Shown piece after piece: positions 2,934-11,122 of a stretch of 64,000 nucleotides of DNA. Each line of letters begins with the position of its first letter. The first letter of the stretch is position 1. Made by a program: the position numbers and the translations under genes. Below the pieces are notes generated by a model. That model worked only from the letters and a program-made list of their open reading frames with translations, did not search any database and was not told the origin of the DNA. The stretch comes from Syntrophaceae bacterium (GTDB lineage: Bacteria; Desulfobacterota; Syntrophia; Syntrophales; Smithellaceae): NCBI GenBank assembly GCA_018436925.1, contig JAHDKI010000012.1:4324-68323 (forward strand). Direction: 5' to 3'.

Positions 2934-3045
2934 CGAGCCGTCCCTCCCCCGGATAGTGGAAATTACATGCACTTTTTAGCCGCGTCCTGTCAACACAAAA
3001 CATGCCCTCCCTCGCGCTTGCGTCCTTGTATAAACTTTCACTTTT

Positions 3046-3873
3046 ATGGTAGTCAGCCGAAACCATCGGGGTGATGTCGATATGCTGAAAGATTTTTCAA
3101 CAAAGTCAGGCAGGATTTCCTGCTGGATCAATCCGCATGATTTCGGCGCCCGCGGACAAAGCCTGGTCTTGATTCCCGGCTCGGGAAGCAACTCATCGGT
3201 GTGGTCGCGCCAGTACGCCAAACTTCACGGACGCTTCAACATCGCGGCGGTCAATCTGCCGGGGCACGGCCGCTCGCGCGGACCGGGAGCCGCTTCGGTT
3301 TTCGACTACGTTTTATGCCTCGAAAACATCCTCGGCGCGCTTGAACTTGAAAAACCCGTTTTGGTCGGCCATTCCCTGGGCGCGGCCATCGCGCTGCTTT
3401 TTGCCGCCACCTGTCCGGAGGCGCTTTCCGGCGTCGTATCCATCGGCGGCGGGTTGAAGATGCCGGTCAATCCGATGATTCTGGAAGGCTTGTCCGCCAA
3501 TCCGTCCGGCACGAAGGAGCTGATCGCCAAATTCTCCATCGCCCCGGCCAATCGGCCGAAAATGCTGCCCGCCATCCAAAAAAGTCTCGATCAGGTCGCA
3601 GCCGACGTTCTTCTGGGCGACCTGACCGCGTGCAGCCGCCTGGACCTGCGCGGACGTCTGGGGGCCATCCGCGTTCCGATTCTGGCCGTCTGCGGCGCTG
3701 AAGACAAAATGACGCCGGTGGCGTCGTCGCAAGATCTTGTCGCAAACGCGGCCGACGCCGAGTTGCTCGTTGTCGAAAACGCCGGACATATGGCAATGAT
3801 AGAAGAGCCCGCCATCGTCAACAAAGCCATTTGCGCGTTTGCCGCAAAGCTGATAAAGGAAACGCCATCGTGA
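3046..3873 (+). CDS. alpha/beta-fold hydrolase
   Basis: 275-aa ORF with a GHSLGA nucleophile elbow and a C-terminal GHM motif. The start could be Met13 (3082). Confidence 0.75.
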   Translation: MVVSRNHRGDVDMLKDFSTKSGRISCWINPHDFGARGQSLVLIPGSGSNSSVWSRQYAKLHGRFNIAAVNLPGHGRSRGPGAASVFDYVLCLENILGALELEKPVLVGHSLGAAIALLFAATCPEALSGVVSIGGGLKMPVNPMILEGLSANPSGTKELIAKFSIAPANRPKMLPAIQKSLDQVAADVLLGDLTACSRLDLRGRLGAIRVPILAVCGAEDKMTPVASSQDLVANAADAELLVVENAGHMAMIEEPAIVNKAICAFAAKLIKETPS

Positions 3874-6157: not shown

Positions 6158-6259
6158 ACGGACTTTGCCGGACATTCCCATTGACTTCACCCGTCCAAAA
6201 TGATAGGAACGTCCAACTTTTAAGTGTTGAAGAAAACACGGATTGCCGGGTTTGCAAAC

Positions 6260-7534
6260 ATGCTGGACATCAAATTTCTAAGACAAAACATTGATTTTGT
6301 GCGAGTCAAAATGGACGAACGGGGCCAGAAGATCGATTTCGACCGGTTTTTGGCCCTCGACGCGAAAAGACGGGATCTTCTTCAAGCTGTGGAAACCTTG
6401 CGCAACGAGCGCAACAGCGTGTCCAAACAGGTGGGGGAACTCAAAAAGAAAAAAGAAGACGCCTCCGAACTCATTGCCAAAATGGGCGATGTCTCGGCCA
6501 AGATCAAGGAATACGACGACACGCTGCGTGTTACCGAAGAAGAACTAAACGCCTTTGTCATGATCGTGCCGAATGTTCAGCACGAATCCGTGCCGCAAGG
6601 AACGGGATCCGAAGACAATCCGGTGGTGCGCACCTGGGGCGAAAAACCGGCCTTCACCTTTGAGCCCAAACAGCATTTCGACCTGGGAGAAGCTCTGGGC
6701 ATCCTCGATTTCGCGCGCGGCGCGAAGATCACCGGCGCGCGCTTTACGCTCTATCGCGGCGCGGGGGCCGCTCTTGAGCGGGCGATTTTCAATTTCATGC
6801 TGGATCTGCACACCACCGAGCACGGCTACACGGAAGTCCTCACGCCGTTTATGGTCAATGCCGACAGCATGACCGGCACCGGTCAGCTGCCGAAATTCAA
6901 GGAAGACCTTTTCAAAATCGAGGGTCTGGAATACTACCTGATCCCAACGGCGGAAGTTCCGGTCACCAACATTTACCGGGATGAAATTCTCGATGAAGAG
7001 ATGCTGCCGGTGTATTATGTGGCCTATTCCCCGTGTTTCCGGGCGGAAGCCGGCTCCTACGGCAAGGACACGCGCGGCCTGATTCGCCAGCATCAGTTCA
7101 ACAAAGTTGAAATGGTCAAGTTCGCCAGGCCGGAAACCTCTTACGACGAACTGGAAAAACTTACCGCCAATGCGGAAGAAGTGCTCAAACGACTGGGCAT
7201 TCCCTTCCGCACGGTCTGTCTGTGTTCGGGAGACCTGGGGTTTTCGTCCGCCAAAACTTACGACGTGGAAGCCTGGATGCCCGGTCAGGATACGTACCGG
7301 GAAATTTCCTCGTGCAGCAACTTCGAGGACTTTCAGGCCAGGCGCGCCGCGATCCGATTCCGGCGCAAAGACACAGGCAAAACCGAATTCGTGCACACAC
7401 TCAACGGCTCCGGCCTCGCAGTCGGCCGAACCGTGGTGGCGGTCCTTGAAAATTATCAGCAGGCCGACGGCAGCGTGATCATTCCGGAGGCGCTGCGACC
7501 GTACATGAGAGGCCTTGAACGGATTACGCCGTAG
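6260..7534 (+). CDS. serS: serine--tRNA ligase
   Basis: Starts [10 protein letters not shown], with a coiled-coil arm and class II motifs ([33 protein letters not shown]). Start moved to Met13 of the ORF. Confidence 0.95.
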
Positions 7535-7726
7535 AACTTTCCCTGTCTTGCCGGATGACATCCGGCCTCCAGGCATCTACCCTGCATCCCATAGGCAGAT
7601 TGAAAAGCCTGCGGGGAACCCGTTTTTAGAATGCCCGATTCGGGCTGGACGCTTTTCCCGGAAAAGCGGAGCCTAAATGACAAACACGGAATCATTTTCC
7701 GCTTTGAGATAAGCTGCGGAAAAACC

Positions 7727-7813
7727 GGCGGGATGGCCGAGTGGTCGAAGGCGGCGGTCTTGACCCGGCATACGCCGGGCGCCCGAAAAACAGGGCGAAA
7801 CCGTTTATTGGTC
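7727..7813 (+). pseudogene. interrupted and truncated tRNA-Ser(TGA)-like copy
   Basis: 7727-7763 matches 8091-8127 of the intact tRNA at 36/37 positions and ends at the anticodon. A 34-nt double-hairpin insert (7764-7797) follows, then aaaccgtt..ggtc, which resembles the anticodon-stem 3' strand and variable arm. There is no T arm or acceptor 3' strand. Confidence 0.75.
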
Positions 7814-7820
7814 TTTGAAA

Positions 7821-8075
7821 ATGCATTATGTTTACATATTGCAAAGCGAGCTGGATAAGGAACTATACGTCGGCATGACGGGAGACCTGAAGCGGCGTTA
7901 CCTGGAACATCAGAGGGGAAATGTTGAAGCGACAAAACGTCGTTTACCCATGAAACTTCTCTGCTATGAAGCATATTTAACAAAAGCGGAAGCAATGCGT
8001 CGGGAAAAATTCCTCAAAAGCAGCGACGGAAGGAAAGATATTCGGAAAAGAATCATCGAAAGCATGATTCAGTAA
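7821..8075 (+). CDS. GIY-YIG (URI-domain) nuclease family protein, YhbQ/COG2827-like
   Basis: The sequence MHYVYILQS...LYVGMTGDLKRRYLEHQRG carries GIY-(10 aa)-YVG and an RR..EH motif. It is visibly AT-richer than its surroundings. The ATG at 7821 lies 6 nt inside the TTG-initiated ORF of the track. Confidence 0.8.
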   Translation: MHYVYILQSELDKELYVGMTGDLKRRYLEHQRGNVEATKRRLPMKLLCYEAYLTKAEAMRREKFLKSSDGRKDIRKRIIESMIQ

Positions 8076-8090
8076 AATTGTAAAGTATCA

Positions 8091-8176
8091 GGAGGGATGG
8101 CCGAGTGGTCGAAGGCGGCGGTCTTGAAAACCGTTGACCGAAAGGTCCGCGGGTTCGAATCCTGCTCCCTCCGCCA
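8091..8176 (+). tRNA. tRNA-Ser (anticodon TGA)
   Basis: Hand-folded cloverleaf with acceptor ggaggga/tccctcc, anticodon loop cttgaaa, a 14-nt variable arm, T arm gcggg-ttcgaat-cctgc and an encoded CCA. Confidence 0.9.
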
Positions 8177-8268
8177 AAAAACTACCCGTGGTTCATAGAA
8201 AGACCGCGGGTTTGGAGGGCAAAGCCCGAAACCCGGCGCATGCCGGGCGAATCCTGCTCCCTCCGCCA
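8177..8268 (+). pseudogene. tRNA-Ser(TGA) 3'-half copy 1 with 35-nt T-loop insert
   Basis: Starts right after the CCA of the tRNA. Order is aaaac.., diverged variable region, ccgcgggtt, 35-nt insert (8213-8247), then cgaatcctgctccctccgcca, which is identical to the tRNA 3' end. Confidence 0.8.
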
Positions 8269-8362
8269 AAAAAAACTACCCGTGGTTCATAGAAAGACCG
8301 CGGGTTTGGAGGGCAAAGCCCGAAACCCGGCGCATGCCGGGCGAATCCTTCTCCCTCCGCCA
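8269..8362 (+). pseudogene. tRNA-Ser(TGA) 3'-half copy 2 with 35-nt T-loop insert
   Basis: Tandem repeat of the previous unit, with two extra A at the start and one G-to-T change in the T stem. Insert at 8307-8341. Confidence 0.8.
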
Positions 8363-8431
8363 GATAATTTTGACTTACGTCTTGAATTATCGGACGTCTT
8401 GTTTTAAAGATACAAGCCTTAACCGGCAAGC

Positions 8432-8526
8432 GGAGAGATGGCTGAGTGGCCGAAAGCGATCGCCTGCTAAGCGATTGTACGCCCTTTAAAGGTGTACCGC
8501 GGGTTCGAATCCCGCTCTCTCCGCCA
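8432..8526 (+). tRNA. tRNA-Ser (anticodon GCT)
   Basis: Hand-folded cloverleaf with acceptor ggagaga/tctctcc, anticodon loop ctgctaa, a 23-nt variable arm, T arm gcggg-ttcgaat-cccgc and an encoded CCA. Confidence 0.9.
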
Positions 8527-8624
8527 TTTAGCGTCAACTGAACCGTGGCGAACTGCAAACCGCGGGTTTGGAGGGCAAAGCCCGAAACCCGGCGCATGCC
8601 GGGCGAATCCCGCTCTCTCCGCCA
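8527..8624 (+). pseudogene. tRNA-Ser(GCT) 3'-half copy with 35-nt T-loop insert
   Basis: Follows the CCA directly. Order is tagcg.., diverged variable region, ccgcgggtt, the same 35-nt insert (8569-8603), then cgaatcccgctctctccgcca, which is identical to the GCT tRNA 3' end. Confidence 0.8.
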
Positions 8625-8668
8625 TTTGAAACACTCTAAACTTATCCCATCCCAAACAACGCCGCCCG

Positions 8669-10420
8669 ATGACCGATTTTTCTGAAAACTTTGTTTTGCT
8701 TGAAACGCTGCGGCGCGATCGCGGAAAAAAAAGAACCCTTTTCTTTGCCGATCCCCTCGACATCATCGAGTGCCGATGCCCGTCCCAGGTCAGCCGATGT
8801 TTCCGGAAAATGGAAACCGCGCGCCGAGACGGCTTCCACCTGGCCGGATTTTTTTCTTATGAATTGGGCTACCTTCTGGAAGAAAGCCTGGCTGCGCTTT
8901 TGCCCCCCGGCGACTTTCCGCTTTTTTGGTTCGGCGTCTACGACAAACCGCAAAGCGCCTCATGCGCACCCAGAGGGGCGGATTTTTATCTTTCCGAGCC
9001 TGCACTCGTTCAGACCCGCGCAAAATACAGCCGGGCCGTGGGCAAAATCAGGGATTTGATCGCAGCCGGCGATACCTACCAGATCAACTACACCACCCGG
9101 GTTCAGTTTCAGTTCGCAGGCGATGTCGCGGCATTCTACGACCGGCTTAAAAAAAACCAGAAAGTATCCTATTCGGCGCTGGTGCGATATTGCGGCAACG
9201 CTCTCGTCTCGCTGTCGCCGGAACTGTTCTTCCGGACCGATCGAAACGGCCGCATCACCGTCAAACCCATGAAGGGAACGGCGCCTTTGCACACACCGGC
9301 CGACTGGCTGAAGAAAGACCCCAAAAACACCAGCGAAAATGTCATGATCGTCGATCTGCTGCGCAATGACCTGGGCAGAATCTGCCTGCCCGGTTCGGTG
9401 CAAGTCCGCAAGCTGTTCGACATCGAAAACTACGAAACCCTCCGCCAGATGACTTCCACCGTGACCGGCAAACTTCACCCCGGCCTGACCATCGAAACCC
9501 TGGTGAAAAGCCTTTTCCCCTGCGGCTCGGTGACGGGAGCGCCCAAAATCCGCAGCATGGGAATCATTCATGACCTGGAAGACGCCCCGCGCCGCATCTA
9601 TACCGGCGCCATCGGCTATTTCGCCCCGAGCGGCGAAGCGGTTTTCAACGTCGCCATCCGGACGCTTGATCTGCGGCGGAAAGAATCCGGACGGTATGAT
9701 GCGACGATGGGTGTCGGAAGCGGAATCGTCTTCGATTCCCGGGCGGATGAGGAGTATGACGAGTGTCTGCTTAAGGCGAGGTTTCTCCAAAACGCCATGC
9801 CGTCCTTCGGGCTTATCGAAACGCTGCGGGTTGAAACGGGGCGCGTTCGTAGGCTTTCGGATCATCTGCGCCGTCTTCGGGCCTCCGCCGACTTTTTCGG
9901 CATTCCCTGCCCGGCGGGCGCGATCAGAAATGCGATCCGGCTTTATAGCGCGACACTTCCGGACATTGCGAAGCTTCGCCTGATTCTGTCCGCCGACGGA
10001 ACCTTCAGGCTCGAATCAGGCCGCCTGCCGGAGACCCCGTCGGACATTCCAACGATCGCCTTGTCCTCTGTCCGGATGTCGTCTGCCGATCCGTTTATCC
10101 GCCATAAAACGACTTTCCGCAAGGCGTACGACGACGAGTTCGCTAAATACTCGGCGAAAGGGTTTTTCGACGTCATTTTTTTAAACGAAAAAGGACAGGT
10201 CACCGAAGGGGCGATTTCCAACCTCTTTGTCCGGATTCGCGGGCGCTGGTATACGCCGCCGGTTTCCTGCGGCTTGTTGCCGGGGATTCAGCGGCGGACC
10301 CTGATGAAAAAATGGTCTGTCCGGGAAAGAATTTTGTCCCCGGACGACCTTCGCCTTGCCGATCAAATCGTGCTGTCCAACGCGGTCCGGGGCATAACCG
10401 AAGTAAGATTGAGAGGATGA
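8669..10420 (+). CDS. pabB: bifunctional chorismate-binding enzyme (aminodeoxychorismate synthase component I-like) / class IV aminotransferase (ADC lyase-like)
   Basis: The N-terminal two-thirds carries chorismate-utilising motifs (SPELFF, PMKGT, GSVTGAPK, GVGSGIV). The C-terminal ~200 aa look like the PabC/class IV fold (HKTT..Y, EGAISNLF). Confidence 0.8.
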   Translation: MTDFSENFVLLETLRRDRGKKRTLFFADPLDIIECRCPSQVSRCFRKMETARRDGFHLAGFFSYELGYLLEESLAALLPPGDFPLFWFGVYDKPQSASCAPRGADFYLSEPALVQTRAKYSRAVGKIRDLIAAGDTYQINYTTRVQFQFAGDVAAFYDRLKKNQKVSYSALVRYCGNALVSLSPELFFRTDRNGRITVKPMKGTAPLHTPADWLKKDPKNTSENVMIVDLLRNDLGRICLPGSVQVRKLFDIENYETLRQMTSTVTGKLHPGLTIETLVKSLFPCGSVTGAPKIRSMGIIHDLEDAPRRIYTGAIGYFAPSGEAVFNVAIRTLDLRRKESGRYDATMGVGSGIVFDSRADEEYDECLLKARFLQNAMPSFGLIETLRVETGRVRRLSDHLRRLRASADFFGIPCPAGAIRNAIRLYSATLPDIAKLRLILSADGTFRLESGRLPETPSDIPTIALSSVRMSSADPFIRHKTTFRKAYDDEFAKYSAKGFFDVIFLNEKGQVTEGAISNLFVRIRGRWYTPPVSCGLLPGIQRRTLMKKWSVRERILSPDDLRLADQIVLSNAVRGITEVRLRG

Positions 10421-10489
10421 TCTTTTTATTTTGCATCGGCCCGATAATATGCTATAGGGCTCCTTCGTTCATTCCAGGAGATTTTTCAT

Positions 10490-10566
10490 GCGCCTGTAGC
10501 TCAGCTGGATAGAGCATCAGACTACGAATCTGGGGGCCGTAGGTTCGAATCCTACCAGGCGCGCCA
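10490..10566 (+). tRNA. tRNA-Arg (anticodon ACG)
   Basis: Hand-folded cloverleaf with acceptor gcgcctg/caggcgc, D arm gctc-agctggata-gagc, anticodon loop ctacgaa, T arm gtagg-ttcgaat-cctac and CCA. Confidence 0.9.
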
Positions 10567-10575
10567 TCCGGTTTA

Positions 10576-10608
10576 AAAGCCGGCTTTGAAAAAAAAGCCG
10601 GCTTTTTT
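10576..10608 (+). terminator. rho-independent terminator after tRNA-Arg
   Basis: aaagccggcttt - gaaaaa - aaagccggcttt stem followed by a T6 run. Confidence 0.7.
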
Positions 10609-10633
10609 CATTTTTCAGCCTCTTGAAATTCCC

Positions 10634-10675
10634 TTGACTTCATCGACCGGTTTATTTATTTTGCATACTAAATAA
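10634..10675 (+). promoter_or_regulatory. candidate sigma70 promoter with overlapping palindromic operator upstream of the MarR gene
   Basis: TTGACT (10634-10639), 17-nt spacer, TATTTT (10657-10662). A perfect 7-bp inverted repeat TTATTTA-N10-TAAATAA (10652-10675) overlaps the -10 element. Confidence 0.4.
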
Positions 10676-10693
10676 TCAGGTCGGGAAGGATCC

Positions 10694-11122
10694 ATGCGAA
10701 GTTACCAGGACGTGATTTTATTCATCCTCAGCAAAGCCTACCAGAAAGTTTACGCCACTTTCAAAGCCAAGACGCAACTTTACGGAATGACGCCGATACA
10801 GGCGCTAGTGTTGCACGCCCTGTATGAAGAGGAAGGGCTTTCCGCCGGAGAACTCGGCAAAAGGCTGGTTTTGGACGGCGCGACCTTGTCCGGCGTTTTA
10901 GACCGGATGGCCGACGGCGGATGGATTACAAAAAATGCAGCCAAAGACGATCGTCGCGTTTTAAACATTCAACTGACGGAAAAATCCCGTCTTTACCGGG
11001 ATACGTTTCTCAAAGATACTGAAAAACTGCATTCGGACGTGCTGTCTTCTCTTTCGGCAGAGGAAAAACGATTGCTCATCCGCATGCTCAAGGATCTGCG
11101 CAAGGAATCCGACGCCGGATGA
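10694..11122 (+). CDS. MarR family transcriptional regulator
   Basis: 142-aa winged-helix pattern (LTPIQALVLHALYEEEGLSAGELGKRL..DRR). ATGA overlap with the next gene. Confidence 0.85.
   Translation: MRSYQDVILFILSKAYQKVYATFKAKTQLYGMTPIQALVLHALYEEEGLSAGELGKRLVLDGATLSGVLDRMADGGWITKNAAKDDRRVLNIQLTEKSRLYRDTFLKDTEKLHSDVLSSLSAEEKRLLIRMLKDLRKESDAG

Follow-up and report, generated by a model that had tools for sequence, protein, structure and literature searches.

Truncated tRNA-Ser copies split by a double hairpin: probable traces of a mobile element family with a minimal GIY-YIG nuclease gene in Smithellaceae and Patescibacteria

In a 64-kb stretch of DNA from a member of the Smithellaceae (referred to throughout as the window), two genes for serine tRNAs are each followed by short units that repeat the end of the neighbouring tRNA and that carry, within the T loop, an identical 35-nt insert (the 35-mer) belonging to a pair of small hairpins, the double hairpin (DH). 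Upstream of the first of these tRNA genes are a partial copy of the same tRNA, a fourth and related DH, and an open reading frame (ORF) of 84 codons for a predicted stand-alone GIY-YIG nuclease. Each unit is probably a partial copy of the neighbouring tRNA-Ser, reduced to the T arm and 3′ end, in which the T loop has been split at its CG by the DH signature of a family of mobile DH/nuclease elements. The source organism has a SerS protein that is 88–91 % identical to those of Smithella and of Smithellaceae metagenome-assembled genomes (MAGs). The features of the locus are given here in their order from serS onwards; H1 and H2 are the first and second hairpins of a DH, and R1 is a covariance model built solely from the DHs of other genomes and loci.

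6224–7534: serS, the first gene of the locus.
7727–7763, + strand: 5′ pseudo-copy of tRNA-Ser(TGA), tRNA positions 1–36 (37 nt; 97 % identical to 8091–8127).
7764–7797, strand not assigned: left DH, in the anticodon loop of the pseudo-copy (R1 match at 7758–7801, 38.3 bits, E 1.8e-10), consisting of H1 at 7764–7779 (CCCGGCATACGCCGGG), CG at 7780–7781, H2 at 7782–7795 (a degenerate hairpin) and CG at 7796–7797.
7798–7805, + strand: remaining anticodon arm of the pseudo-copy (AA plus ACCGTT, tRNA positions 37–44), read against 8128–8135.
7821–8075, + strand: gene for the 84-aa predicted stand-alone GIY-YIG nuclease of the UPF0213 or bacterial Slx1-like type (Pfam PF01541).
8091–8176, + strand: intact tRNA-Ser(TGA) (ARAGORN; Rfam tRNA model, 59.3 bits).
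8177–8268, + strand: unit 1 (R1 match at 8209–8253, 37.2 bits, E 4.4e-10), consisting of a spacer at 8177–8203, the T-stem 5′ strand plus TT at 8204–8212, the DH (35-mer plus CG) at 8213–8249, and the T-loop remainder, T-stem and acceptor 3′ strands and CCA at 8250–8268.
8269–8362, + strand: unit 2, a tandem copy of unit 1 (98 % identical), with the 35-mer at 8307–8341 and an R1 match at 8303–8347.
8374–8405, + strand: terminator-like hairpin and T run in the host 3′ flank, read from the sequence.
8432–8526, + strand: intact tRNA-Ser(GCT) (ARAGORN; Rfam tRNA model, 61.9 bits).
8527–8624, + strand: unit 3 (R1 match at 8565–8609, E 4.4e-10), consisting of a spacer at 8527–8559, CCGCGGGTT at 8560–8568, the DH at 8569–8605 and a GCT-type tail at 8606–8624.
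Downstream of unit 3: a pabB-like gene, the last of the locus.

The first-pass annotation of this DNA had described three units at 8177–8268, 8269–8362 and 8527–8624 behind the two tRNA-Ser genes, and that description holds. The 35-mer occurs exactly three times in the 64 kb, at 8213, 8307 and 8569 (none in 100 shuffles), and is flanked in every unit by T-loop-like sequence, GGGTT on its 5′ side and CGAATCC on its 3′ side. Each 21-nt tail matches the tRNA next to it, with one G-to-T change in unit 2, and both functional tRNAs are intact by ARAGORN and the Rfam tRNA model, as had been stated. The insert was also rightly judged to be site-specific, at the same T-loop position throughout, and not the product of random decay; the spacers differ among the units while the DH is identical in all three. 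The extent of the copies had, however, been overestimated, in that they were read as 3′ halves that start behind the anticodon and include a diverged variable arm. Homology between units 1 and 3, at 97 %, is limited to their last 66 nt, and the units of relatives keep only GGTT(CG), i.e. 4–8 nt of tRNA, before the insert, with unrelated AT-rich spacer upstream; what has been duplicated of the tRNA is therefore its T arm and 3′ end, approximately 26–30 nt. The spacers of the window units (8183–8211 and 8541–8568) additionally carry the complement of the T-stem 5′ strand, which gives an extra hairpin just before the DH (ACCCGTGGTT...GACCGCGGGT in units 1 and 2, AACCGTGG...CCGCGGGTT in unit 3) and is absent from most units of relatives. 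A simple terminator scan made no call at 8374–8405 and does not support the reading of a terminator after unit 2; relatives have a hairpin and T run at the equivalent place, directly 3′ of the tRNA, and units 1 and 2 appear to lie between tRNA-Ser(TGA) and its probable terminator.

An element body and an integrase had both been thought missing. No integrase is present, but a body is, in the form of the ORF at 7821–8075, the 5′ pseudo-copy at 7727–7763 and the fourth DH at 7764–7797. The pseudo-copy stops directly after the anticodon TGA and occupies the serS-adjacent place where relatives carry the tRNA itself, and both DNA strands of the DH that follows fold to a junction with two hairpins. 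Similarity to the tRNA ends after 7805, and other loci are organized likewise, the interrupted arm being kept and the copy then cut off.

In its canonical form, the DH consists of TT and CG, a 6-bp stem with the loop ATNC (H1), CG, a 6-bp stem with the loop GNAT (H2), CG and AATCC; that is, two repeats of a 16-nt hairpin plus CG, approximately 36 nt in total, are placed after the CG of the T-loop sequence TTCGAA. Within the window 35-mer, H2 is canonical (CCCGGC-GCAT-GCCGGG) and H1 is a Smithellaceae variant (GGGC-loop-GCCC) that recurs in relatives' units of four isoacceptors. A covariance model from homologues had been suggested as a check for conserved structure, and it bears such structure out. 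When run on the 64-kb window, R1 finds exactly four sites (7758–7801, 8209–8253, 8303–8347 and 8565–8609), at 37–38 bits and E ~1e-10, with the next match at E 0.04. Compensatory changes occur in 10 of the 12 stem pairs, and the covariation score of 0.408 compares with 0.101 in shuffles and is reached by none of 500 of them; the hairpins of the DH are conserved, covary and are under selection. A single long palindrome was rejected as the selected structure, since pairing between H1 and H2 is without covariation and falls below the shuffles. The H1 loop reads ATNC in 48 of 52 sites and the H2 loop GNAT in 44 of 52. Because these loops are complementary, the two DNA strands carry the same pair of hairpins and either one matches the model, and this strand symmetry suggests that the DH is a signal at the level of DNA rather than RNA. 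Within the strand-symmetric consensus, the two hairpins are kept different, tending to diverge at a variable stem position. Conservation extends beyond the phylum, with a non-coding 23-mer (CCCGGCGCATGCCGGGCGAATCC) identical in the window and in locus L041, which belongs to a Patescibacteria-like MAG of a different phylum; the nuclease proteins of the two are ~60 % identical.

Several variations on the DH were seen. At four loci, a second palindrome of ~20 nt (GTGTGACC-TTTA-GGTCACAC and variants) is nested in the loop of one DH hairpin, not always the same one (L013 ~3040–3075, L016 ~2905–2940, L018 ~2895–2930 and L056 ~470–505, in locus coordinates), and hairpin loops seem to attract further palindromic insertions. 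The three framing CGs of Smithellaceae 3′ units are often TG or CA (L005 5823–5860, with TG...CA...CA; L006 2877–2914; L009 620–657; window 8211–8249), a pattern that could be the one expected from deamination of methylated CpG but could equally reflect lineage drift. Locus L039 (2765–2915) has two tandem 5′ partial copies of tRNA-Ser(GCT), positions 1–27, with one hairpin (TCCCGC-CAAG-GCGGGA) standing behind each where the anticodon arm would be, which is a different type of hairpin in a similar context.

The DH is restricted to tRNA loops. Among 81 candidate sites in the window and all fetched loci, 79 lie in the T, anticodon or D loops of tRNA or tRNA-like sequence and two are chance hits. 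The T loop, with GGTTCG before and CGAATCC after the DH, is the commonest site; a minority are in anticodon loops (Ser-CGA, between TCG and AA; Ser-TGA, between TTGA and AA; and Val), and two are in the D-arm region (Asp in L052 and Ser in L076). Metagenome contigs were also scanned, with a pattern that contained the inner DH only and no tRNA flank. This gave 36 matches, three of them chance matches without hairpins, and all 33 true DHs have T-loop flanks, in the context of Ser, Arg, Pro, Lys, Thr, Tyr and Gln tRNAs. The first-pass annotation had been prepared to give up its reading if the insert proved to be a generic REP-type repeat with no preference for tRNAs and the units proved untranscribed and not conserved in close relatives; the generic repeat is an option that falls away since every true DH of the scan has T-loop flanks and the four DHs in the 64 kb are all in tRNA-Ser contexts. 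Elsewhere in the window, tRNA-Arg(ACG) at 10490–10566, the T loop of which is also GGTTCGAATCC, is followed by a clean hairpin and T-run terminator and has no DH unit, so that T-loop sequence alone is insufficient for occupancy.

A partial copy beside an intact gene is equally constant. All 34 DH copies that keep the 5′ part of a tRNA are upstream of an intact copy of the same tRNA, all 16 that keep the 3′ part are downstream of the intact gene, and none retains the two together. When the DH was deleted in silico, a complete tRNA resulted at no more than 7 of the 81 sites and no tRNA at the other 74; the DH copies are therefore not intron-like interruptions of working genes. The idea of a group I intron, or something like one, within a tRNA gene present only once was rejected, the interrupted copies being truncated and the insert just 35–36 nt; no Rfam family matches the region, and no intron family does so within 7000–11000 at E up to 1. 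On the short side, 4–7 nt of tRNA remain beyond the DH, typically AATCC or GGTT. The long side runs to the end of the gene, and 3′ units extend 3–6 nt past the CCA (GTTTT after both CCAs in L006 and L122), whereas the duplicated tails of Patescibacteria have no CCA at all. Both facts indicate duplication at the DNA level, and on their strength reverse transcription of a mature tRNA was rejected as the source of the copies. Units without the gene, 5′ as well as 3′, are present for many tRNAs, and tandem arrays recur (L051 has three units with a 62-nt period). L038 is a mirror image of the autonomous arrangement, in which the tRNA is followed by the ORF and then by the DH-split 3′ end. No DH-free partial tRNA copy was seen in these loci, and the DNA between complete and partial copies measures 5–330 nt in dozens of independent loci. 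A phage vector was also considered and rejected, as viral contigs gave no DH match and phage and plasmid records gave only GIY-YIG relatives at 35–42 % identity.

The ORF at 7821–8075, which is the single copy of its gene in the window, is a bare GIY-YIG domain (Pfam PF01541, E 4.5e-14, 53 bits against a cutoff of 22.6 bits). A profile of 17 homologues matches the PDB entries 1zg2 (BH0048, E 3.6e-12) and 1ywl (EF2693, E 3.4e-7), both of UPF0213, which have been classed as minimal GIY-YIG domains of the bacterial Slx1 family (PMC1564403). Across 17 sequences that are 60–82 % identical to the query, Y1, Y3, Y14, G16, R24, H28 and E48 are invariant, i.e. the catalytic set formed by the Tyr of the GIY motif, the Tyr-x-Gly of the YIG motif, Arg, His and Glu. 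From these sequence matches, the protein is a predicted GIY-YIG nuclease of the bacterial Slx1-like or UPF0213 branch. Its dN/dS is 0.02–0.08, and saturation of synonymous sites is reached already within the set of Smithellaceae copies compared. The NCBIfam model for group I intron endonucleases gives 16.6 bits, below its cutoff of 56 bits, and a defence-system or phage-protein family was rejected in the absence of any PADLOC or PHROGs match. The family is large (3,290 clusters at 50 % identity, E <= 1e-10), and its linkage to tRNA genes and to the DH is tight. Of the homologous ORFs fetched from 79 species genomes, 60 are directly upstream of a same-strand tRNA that starts no more than ~120 nt after the ORF; 50 of these tRNAs are tRNA-Ser, covering all four isoacceptors found (TGA, CGA, GGA and GCT), and the others are Tyr, Arg, Gln, Asp and Val. 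Most such ORFs have a truncated, DH-split copy of the same tRNA upstream, with the DH ending a median of 27 nt before the ORF (35 loci across phyla). Moreover, DHs with 5-nt loops go with one particular clade of the protein, which is what joint evolution of protein and hairpins would lead one to expect.

Comparison of the Ser-tRNA loci of close relatives, which had also been proposed at the outset, uncovered insertion polymorphism. The near-identical strain L001 has the same arrangement as the window. Seven orthologous serS loci are empty, with serS, tRNA-Ser(TGA) and tRNA-Ser(GCT) and nothing extra (L002, L003, L004, L117, L118, L120 and L123); five, namely the window, L005, L006, L008 and L009, have the ORF and at least one 3′ unit; two, L121 and L122, have no ORF and one unit after tRNA-Ser(GCT); and two decayed loci, L078 and L084, retain only a C-terminal remnant of the ORF. 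The 5′ pseudo-copy is found again in L005, L006 and L008, the contig of L009 starting 19 nt upstream of the ORF. The tRNA-Ser(GCT) site is without a unit in L002–L005, L117, L118, L120 and L123. Homology of the host flanks sets the limits of the insertion, in that the serS-proximal flank adjoins the 5′ pseudo-copy and the 3′ flank adjoins the last CCA. A path of decay is visible in L104, a different locus from the metagenome scan, where an internally deleted ORF lies between the DH and tRNA-Ser(CGA). Change is also apparent between near-identical strains, unit 2, which makes up 94 of 7,547 nt, having 3 of the 43 substitutions that distinguish the window from L001 (P = 0.016), along with the only indel in the aligned serS-to-pabB intergenic region (7535–8668). 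A further 25 of the 43 substitutions are in the pabB-like gene (8669–10420) and none is in serS, and the tRNA cluster may be a recombination boundary.

These observations make up the case for the mobile-element reading given at the start. On that reading, the autonomous form of the element probably carries the gene for the 84-aa stand-alone GIY-YIG nuclease, with the DH as its cis-acting signature. The window would contain one autonomous copy, made up of pseudo-tRNA 1–36, the anticodon-loop DH, the nuclease gene and the intact tRNA-Ser(TGA), and three 3′ units without the gene, a tandem pair behind tRNA-Ser(TGA) and a single one behind tRNA-Ser(GCT). Such elements, which occupy tRNA-gene loops in Smithellaceae and Patescibacteria and always leave one intact copy of the tRNA, are apparently undescribed. 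No account of a double hairpin in tRNA loops associated with a GIY-YIG protein turned up in a literature search, and a recent paper on tRNA introns in Patescibacteria does not mention the DH/nuclease system. The fixed spacing between DH and ORF and the stereotyped breakpoints argue for a functional link between DH and nuclease.

Given targets in tRNA loops, a CG that appears three times, a duplication that runs from the loop to the gene end and a nuclease family known for structure specificity, we infer a cut-and-repair mechanism as the simplest reading. The loops of the tRNA cloverleaf are usually hit at CG, the same dinucleotide stands three times around the two hairpins, and the duplicated segment spans the loop to just outside the gene end. 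What the nuclease acts on would be folded DNA, in the form of hairpins or of an extruded cloverleaf, and not a long sequence, and it would make one cut at the CG of the loop and a second near the base of the acceptor stem, a little beyond the gene end. Relatives of this nuclease family leave 2-nt overhangs, as T4 SegB does (PMC2330249). The DH end of the element would be joined at the loop cut, and gap repair would duplicate the tRNA segment between the two cuts, much like a very long target-site duplication, with the result that one intact tRNA gene always survives and a DH-split orphan stands beside it. The suggestion in the first-pass annotation of a site-specific miniature insertion with a long target duplication comes close to the comparative data. 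Solo units may be deletion derivatives or copies mobilized in trans, and tandem units may arise via unequal recombination between the repeated tails.

A number of points weigh against the mobile-element reading. The predicted mobility is deduced from genome comparisons that involve MAGs and metagenome contigs, and assembly errors at repeats may affect some of these. The 84-aa catalytic domain has no evident module for DNA binding or targeting, and the intact tRNA keeps the presumed target loop, so that the element would have to tolerate or limit re-cutting. In the DNA examined, the nuclease gene is present at only 7 of 32 DH loci of the unbiased scan. Presence of the ORF is associated with presence of units (5/5 versus 2/9; one-sided Fisher p = 0.0105), but the loci compared are phylogenetically related and the test overstates their independence. 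The H1 of the window units is the divergent Smithellaceae variant and is not related to H2 by reverse complementarity. The DH sites used for covariation were chosen for pairing, which inflates the percentage paired. Finally, bacterial Slx1-like domains are sometimes fused to tRNA methyltransferases (PMC1564403), and this leaves room for a role at the RNA level.

An unlikely alternative is that the DH is a small self-spreading palindrome, propagated by a host activity or by short-patch gene conversion through the near-universal GGTTCG/CGAATCC homology of T loops, which survives in redundant tRNA fragments, with the GIY-YIG gene as a passenger or as the beneficiary of a tRNA promoter. The 25 of 32 DH loci of the unbiased scan that show no nuclease gene in the DNA examined are in keeping with this, as is the identity of the DH in the three window units despite their differing spacers. 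The 20-nt palindrome nested in DH loops at several loci would mean that hairpin loops attract palindromes generally, and mitochondrial double-hairpin elements and GC clusters spread with no dedicated enzyme known (PMC10085805, PMC2800124). Against this stand the distance from DH to ORF, with a median of 27 nt in 35 loci of different phyla, and the co-variation of DH type with protein clade. DH-less partial tRNA copies were not seen in these loci, and the stereotyped breakpoints 4–7 nt beyond the DH are unlike random pre-existing fragments. L104, moreover, is an example of how loss of an internal part of the ORF can give rise to solo units.

It is also improbable that the units or their DHs act as RNA, i.e. 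as co-transcribed minihelices, processing signals, stabilizers of the nuclease mRNA or decoys, with the GIY-YIG protein directed at tRNA or other RNA. Units 1 and 2, lying between a tRNA and a terminator-like hairpin, are probably transcribed; the RNA of unit 1 folds with z = −4.5, and GGAGGG in its insert pairs with the acceptor 3′ strand to give a CCA-ended minihelix. In addition, TGGAGGGC is conserved in Smithellaceae 3′ units of four isoacceptors, the methyltransferase found fused to bacterial Slx1-like domains is TrmH-like (PMC1564403), and RNA structure would explain the stem covariation as well. Nevertheless, a motif in which the ATNC of H1 complements the GNAT of H2, so that both strands match the model, is needless for a transcript of one strand, and the folding of unit 3 is no better than that of shuffled sequence (z = −0.24). 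The canonical DH of Patescibacteria lacks the acceptor complementarity, and no Rfam family corresponds to the region. Units are present or absent among relatives with 88–91 % identical SerS, and unit 2 gathers changes between near-identical strains. Tallied in this way, strand symmetry, presence and absence in relatives and the excess differences of unit 2 disfavour the tRNA-like RNAs or decoys that the first-pass annotation had put forward.

The T loop and anticodon loop are sublocations used by tRNA-targeting integrases, and DH breakpoints occur in both. That annotation had brought up integrase crossover on this account, though not without doubts, and the units could in principle be debris from the attachment (att) sites of integrative elements, left after crossover by a tyrosine integrase in either loop and loss of the element body. 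A complete and a partial tRNA copy in direct orientation are indeed a hallmark of such integrations (bioRxiv 10.1101/2022.07.05.498093). The anatomy of the loci makes this explanation very improbable, however: no integrase is in or beside any locus examined, and the ORF adjoining the units encodes a predicted GIY-YIG nuclease; the distance from complete to partial copy is only 5–330 nt in dozens of independent loci and 27–330 nt in the window (spacers of 27–33 nt on the 3′ side and ~330 nt, including the GIY-YIG ORF, on the 5′ side); partial copies of the 5′ kind occur as often as those of the 3′ kind and follow a mirror-image pattern; and a conserved DH, common to distant phyla, lies inside the duplicated segment and, together with the GIY-YIG gene, defines the element.

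The DH/nuclease system shares one or two features with each of several known systems and fails the defining features of all of them. Tandem repeats that each end with the last nucleotides of the tRNA, including CCA, follow the tRNA at E. coli tyrT, but those repeats are 178 bp long, have no T-loop insert and no associated nuclease gene, and are explained by unequal recombination. T4 SegB is encoded by a free-standing GIY-YIG homing endonuclease gene in a phage tRNA gene cluster (PMC2330249). Likenesses to such systems include a GIY-YIG nuclease gene among tRNA genes, site polymorphism (7 empty, 5 filled, 2 unit-only and 2 decayed serS-tRNA-Ser loci) and, by analogy, the expectation that spread would occur via DNA breaks repaired from the element-bearing allele, with co-conversion of the flanking tRNA. 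Whereas SegB-type enzymes exceed 200 aa and combine a catalytic with a DNA-binding domain, the window protein is an 84-aa bare catalytic domain of the Slx1-like branch, and its element lies inside a tRNA gene, has a conserved DH and in every case comes with a partial second copy of the gene it targets.

With the double-hairpin elements (DHEs) and GC clusters of fungal mitochondria and the repetitive hairpin elements of sponge mitochondria (PMC10085805, PMC2800124), the DH has in common its short, GC-rich form with two adjacent hairpins (here 6 bp each, in Smithellaceae and Patescibacteria alike) and near-identity across species. Those elements are likewise thought to be mobile, occur as tandem or nested insertions, and have neither a ribozyme nor coding capacity of their own. 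However, mitochondrial DHEs are found in intergenic and variable rRNA regions with no dedicated enzyme known, while the bacterial DH is confined to chromosomal tRNA loops, is linked to a nuclease gene and has a fixed CG-hairpin-CG-hairpin-CG layout. The likeness, drawn from descriptions of the elements, is one of analogy, not membership. tRNA-targeting integrative elements (bioRxiv 10.1101/2022.07.05.498093) resemble the present system in their tRNA target, their breakpoints in the T and anticodon loops and the intact gene beside a partial direct repeat; they differ from it in that the DH loci have no integrase among the neighbouring genes and no kilobase-scale body, have partial copies that may be 5′ or 3′, and bear a palindromic insert within the partial copy. 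REP/REPIN-RAYT systems are also built of short palindromes paired in inverted orientation, with many non-autonomous copies for each autonomous gene and hairpins conserved by compensatory change. REPs, though, are dispersed by the hundreds in extragenic DNA and are linked to an HUH (IS200/IS605-like) transposase, whereas DHs number four in the 64 kb, are confined to tRNA loops and are linked to a GIY-YIG gene; no HUH transposase was seen next to the loci. By profile match, the window protein belongs to the same minimal GIY-YIG fold family as eukaryotic SLX1 and bacterial UPF0213 (PMC1564403). Eukaryotic SLX1 recognizes DNA structure rather than sequence and cuts branched and stem-loop DNA accordingly (PMC8287910), and the DH and tRNA-loop targets suggest, by analogy, a similar mode of recognition. 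SLX1, however, requires SLX4 and works in repair.

A further and more tentative proposal, possible but rather doubtful at present, is that the elements constitute a new class, in which a minimal Slx1-like GIY-YIG nuclease targets the shape of DNA (the hairpin loops of transiently folded tRNA genes or the palindromic DH) instead of a long recognition sequence and plants a strand-symmetric DH at a loop CG with a long, gene-preserving target duplication, the class having spread between phyla as distant as Desulfobacterota and Patescibacteria. To our knowledge, no role in mobile elements has been reported for bacterial stand-alone Slx1-like proteins. The UPF0213 structures 1zg2 and 1ywl have been solved since before 2006 (PMC1564403), and no assigned function was found for them; a testable role and a defined DNA substrate can now be offered. 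If the shape-guided class is real, it would provide the first function for bacterial UPF0213 proteins and point to a possible enzymology behind the mobility, so far unexplained, of mitochondrial DHEs and GC clusters. The DH element is a bacterial counterpart to the mitochondrial DHEs. Because an intact copy is always left, the element can sit in single-copy tRNA genes without killing its host, and if target choice is structural, a compact tool for DNA insertion is conceivable.

Two minor observations concern database records. Rfam 'Plastid-psbl-rps4' matches on the minus strand (8126–8173, 8467–8523 and 8538–8621), all below the gathering score, are artefacts; they are antisense to the T arm and variable arm of tRNA-Ser and to unit 3, and the plastid model contains an antisense tRNA-Ser. 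Locus L029 (contig JALOBP010000002.1, labelled as a Methanoregula sp. MAG) has a DH, a GIY-YIG gene and a bacterial-type tRNA-Ser(GCT) on a contig binned with a methanogenic archaeon, and is probably a mis-binned Patescibacteria contig.

The element also bears on genome annotation. Its presence would explain the pseudo-tRNA fragments found by tRNA-Ser genes and may explain assembly breaks at tRNA clusters in Smithellaceae and Patescibacteria MAGs. It would account, too, for the false N-terminal extensions with which many GIY-YIG homologues are annotated: these stretches of 20–35 aa are the translated pseudo-tRNA and DH (e.g. MAAVLTRHAPG... and ...RPAHAGRI...; proteins P0138, P0123, P0241, P0243, P0246, P0270 and P0381), and the peptide signature of the translated DH could allow a census of the element from protein databases alone.

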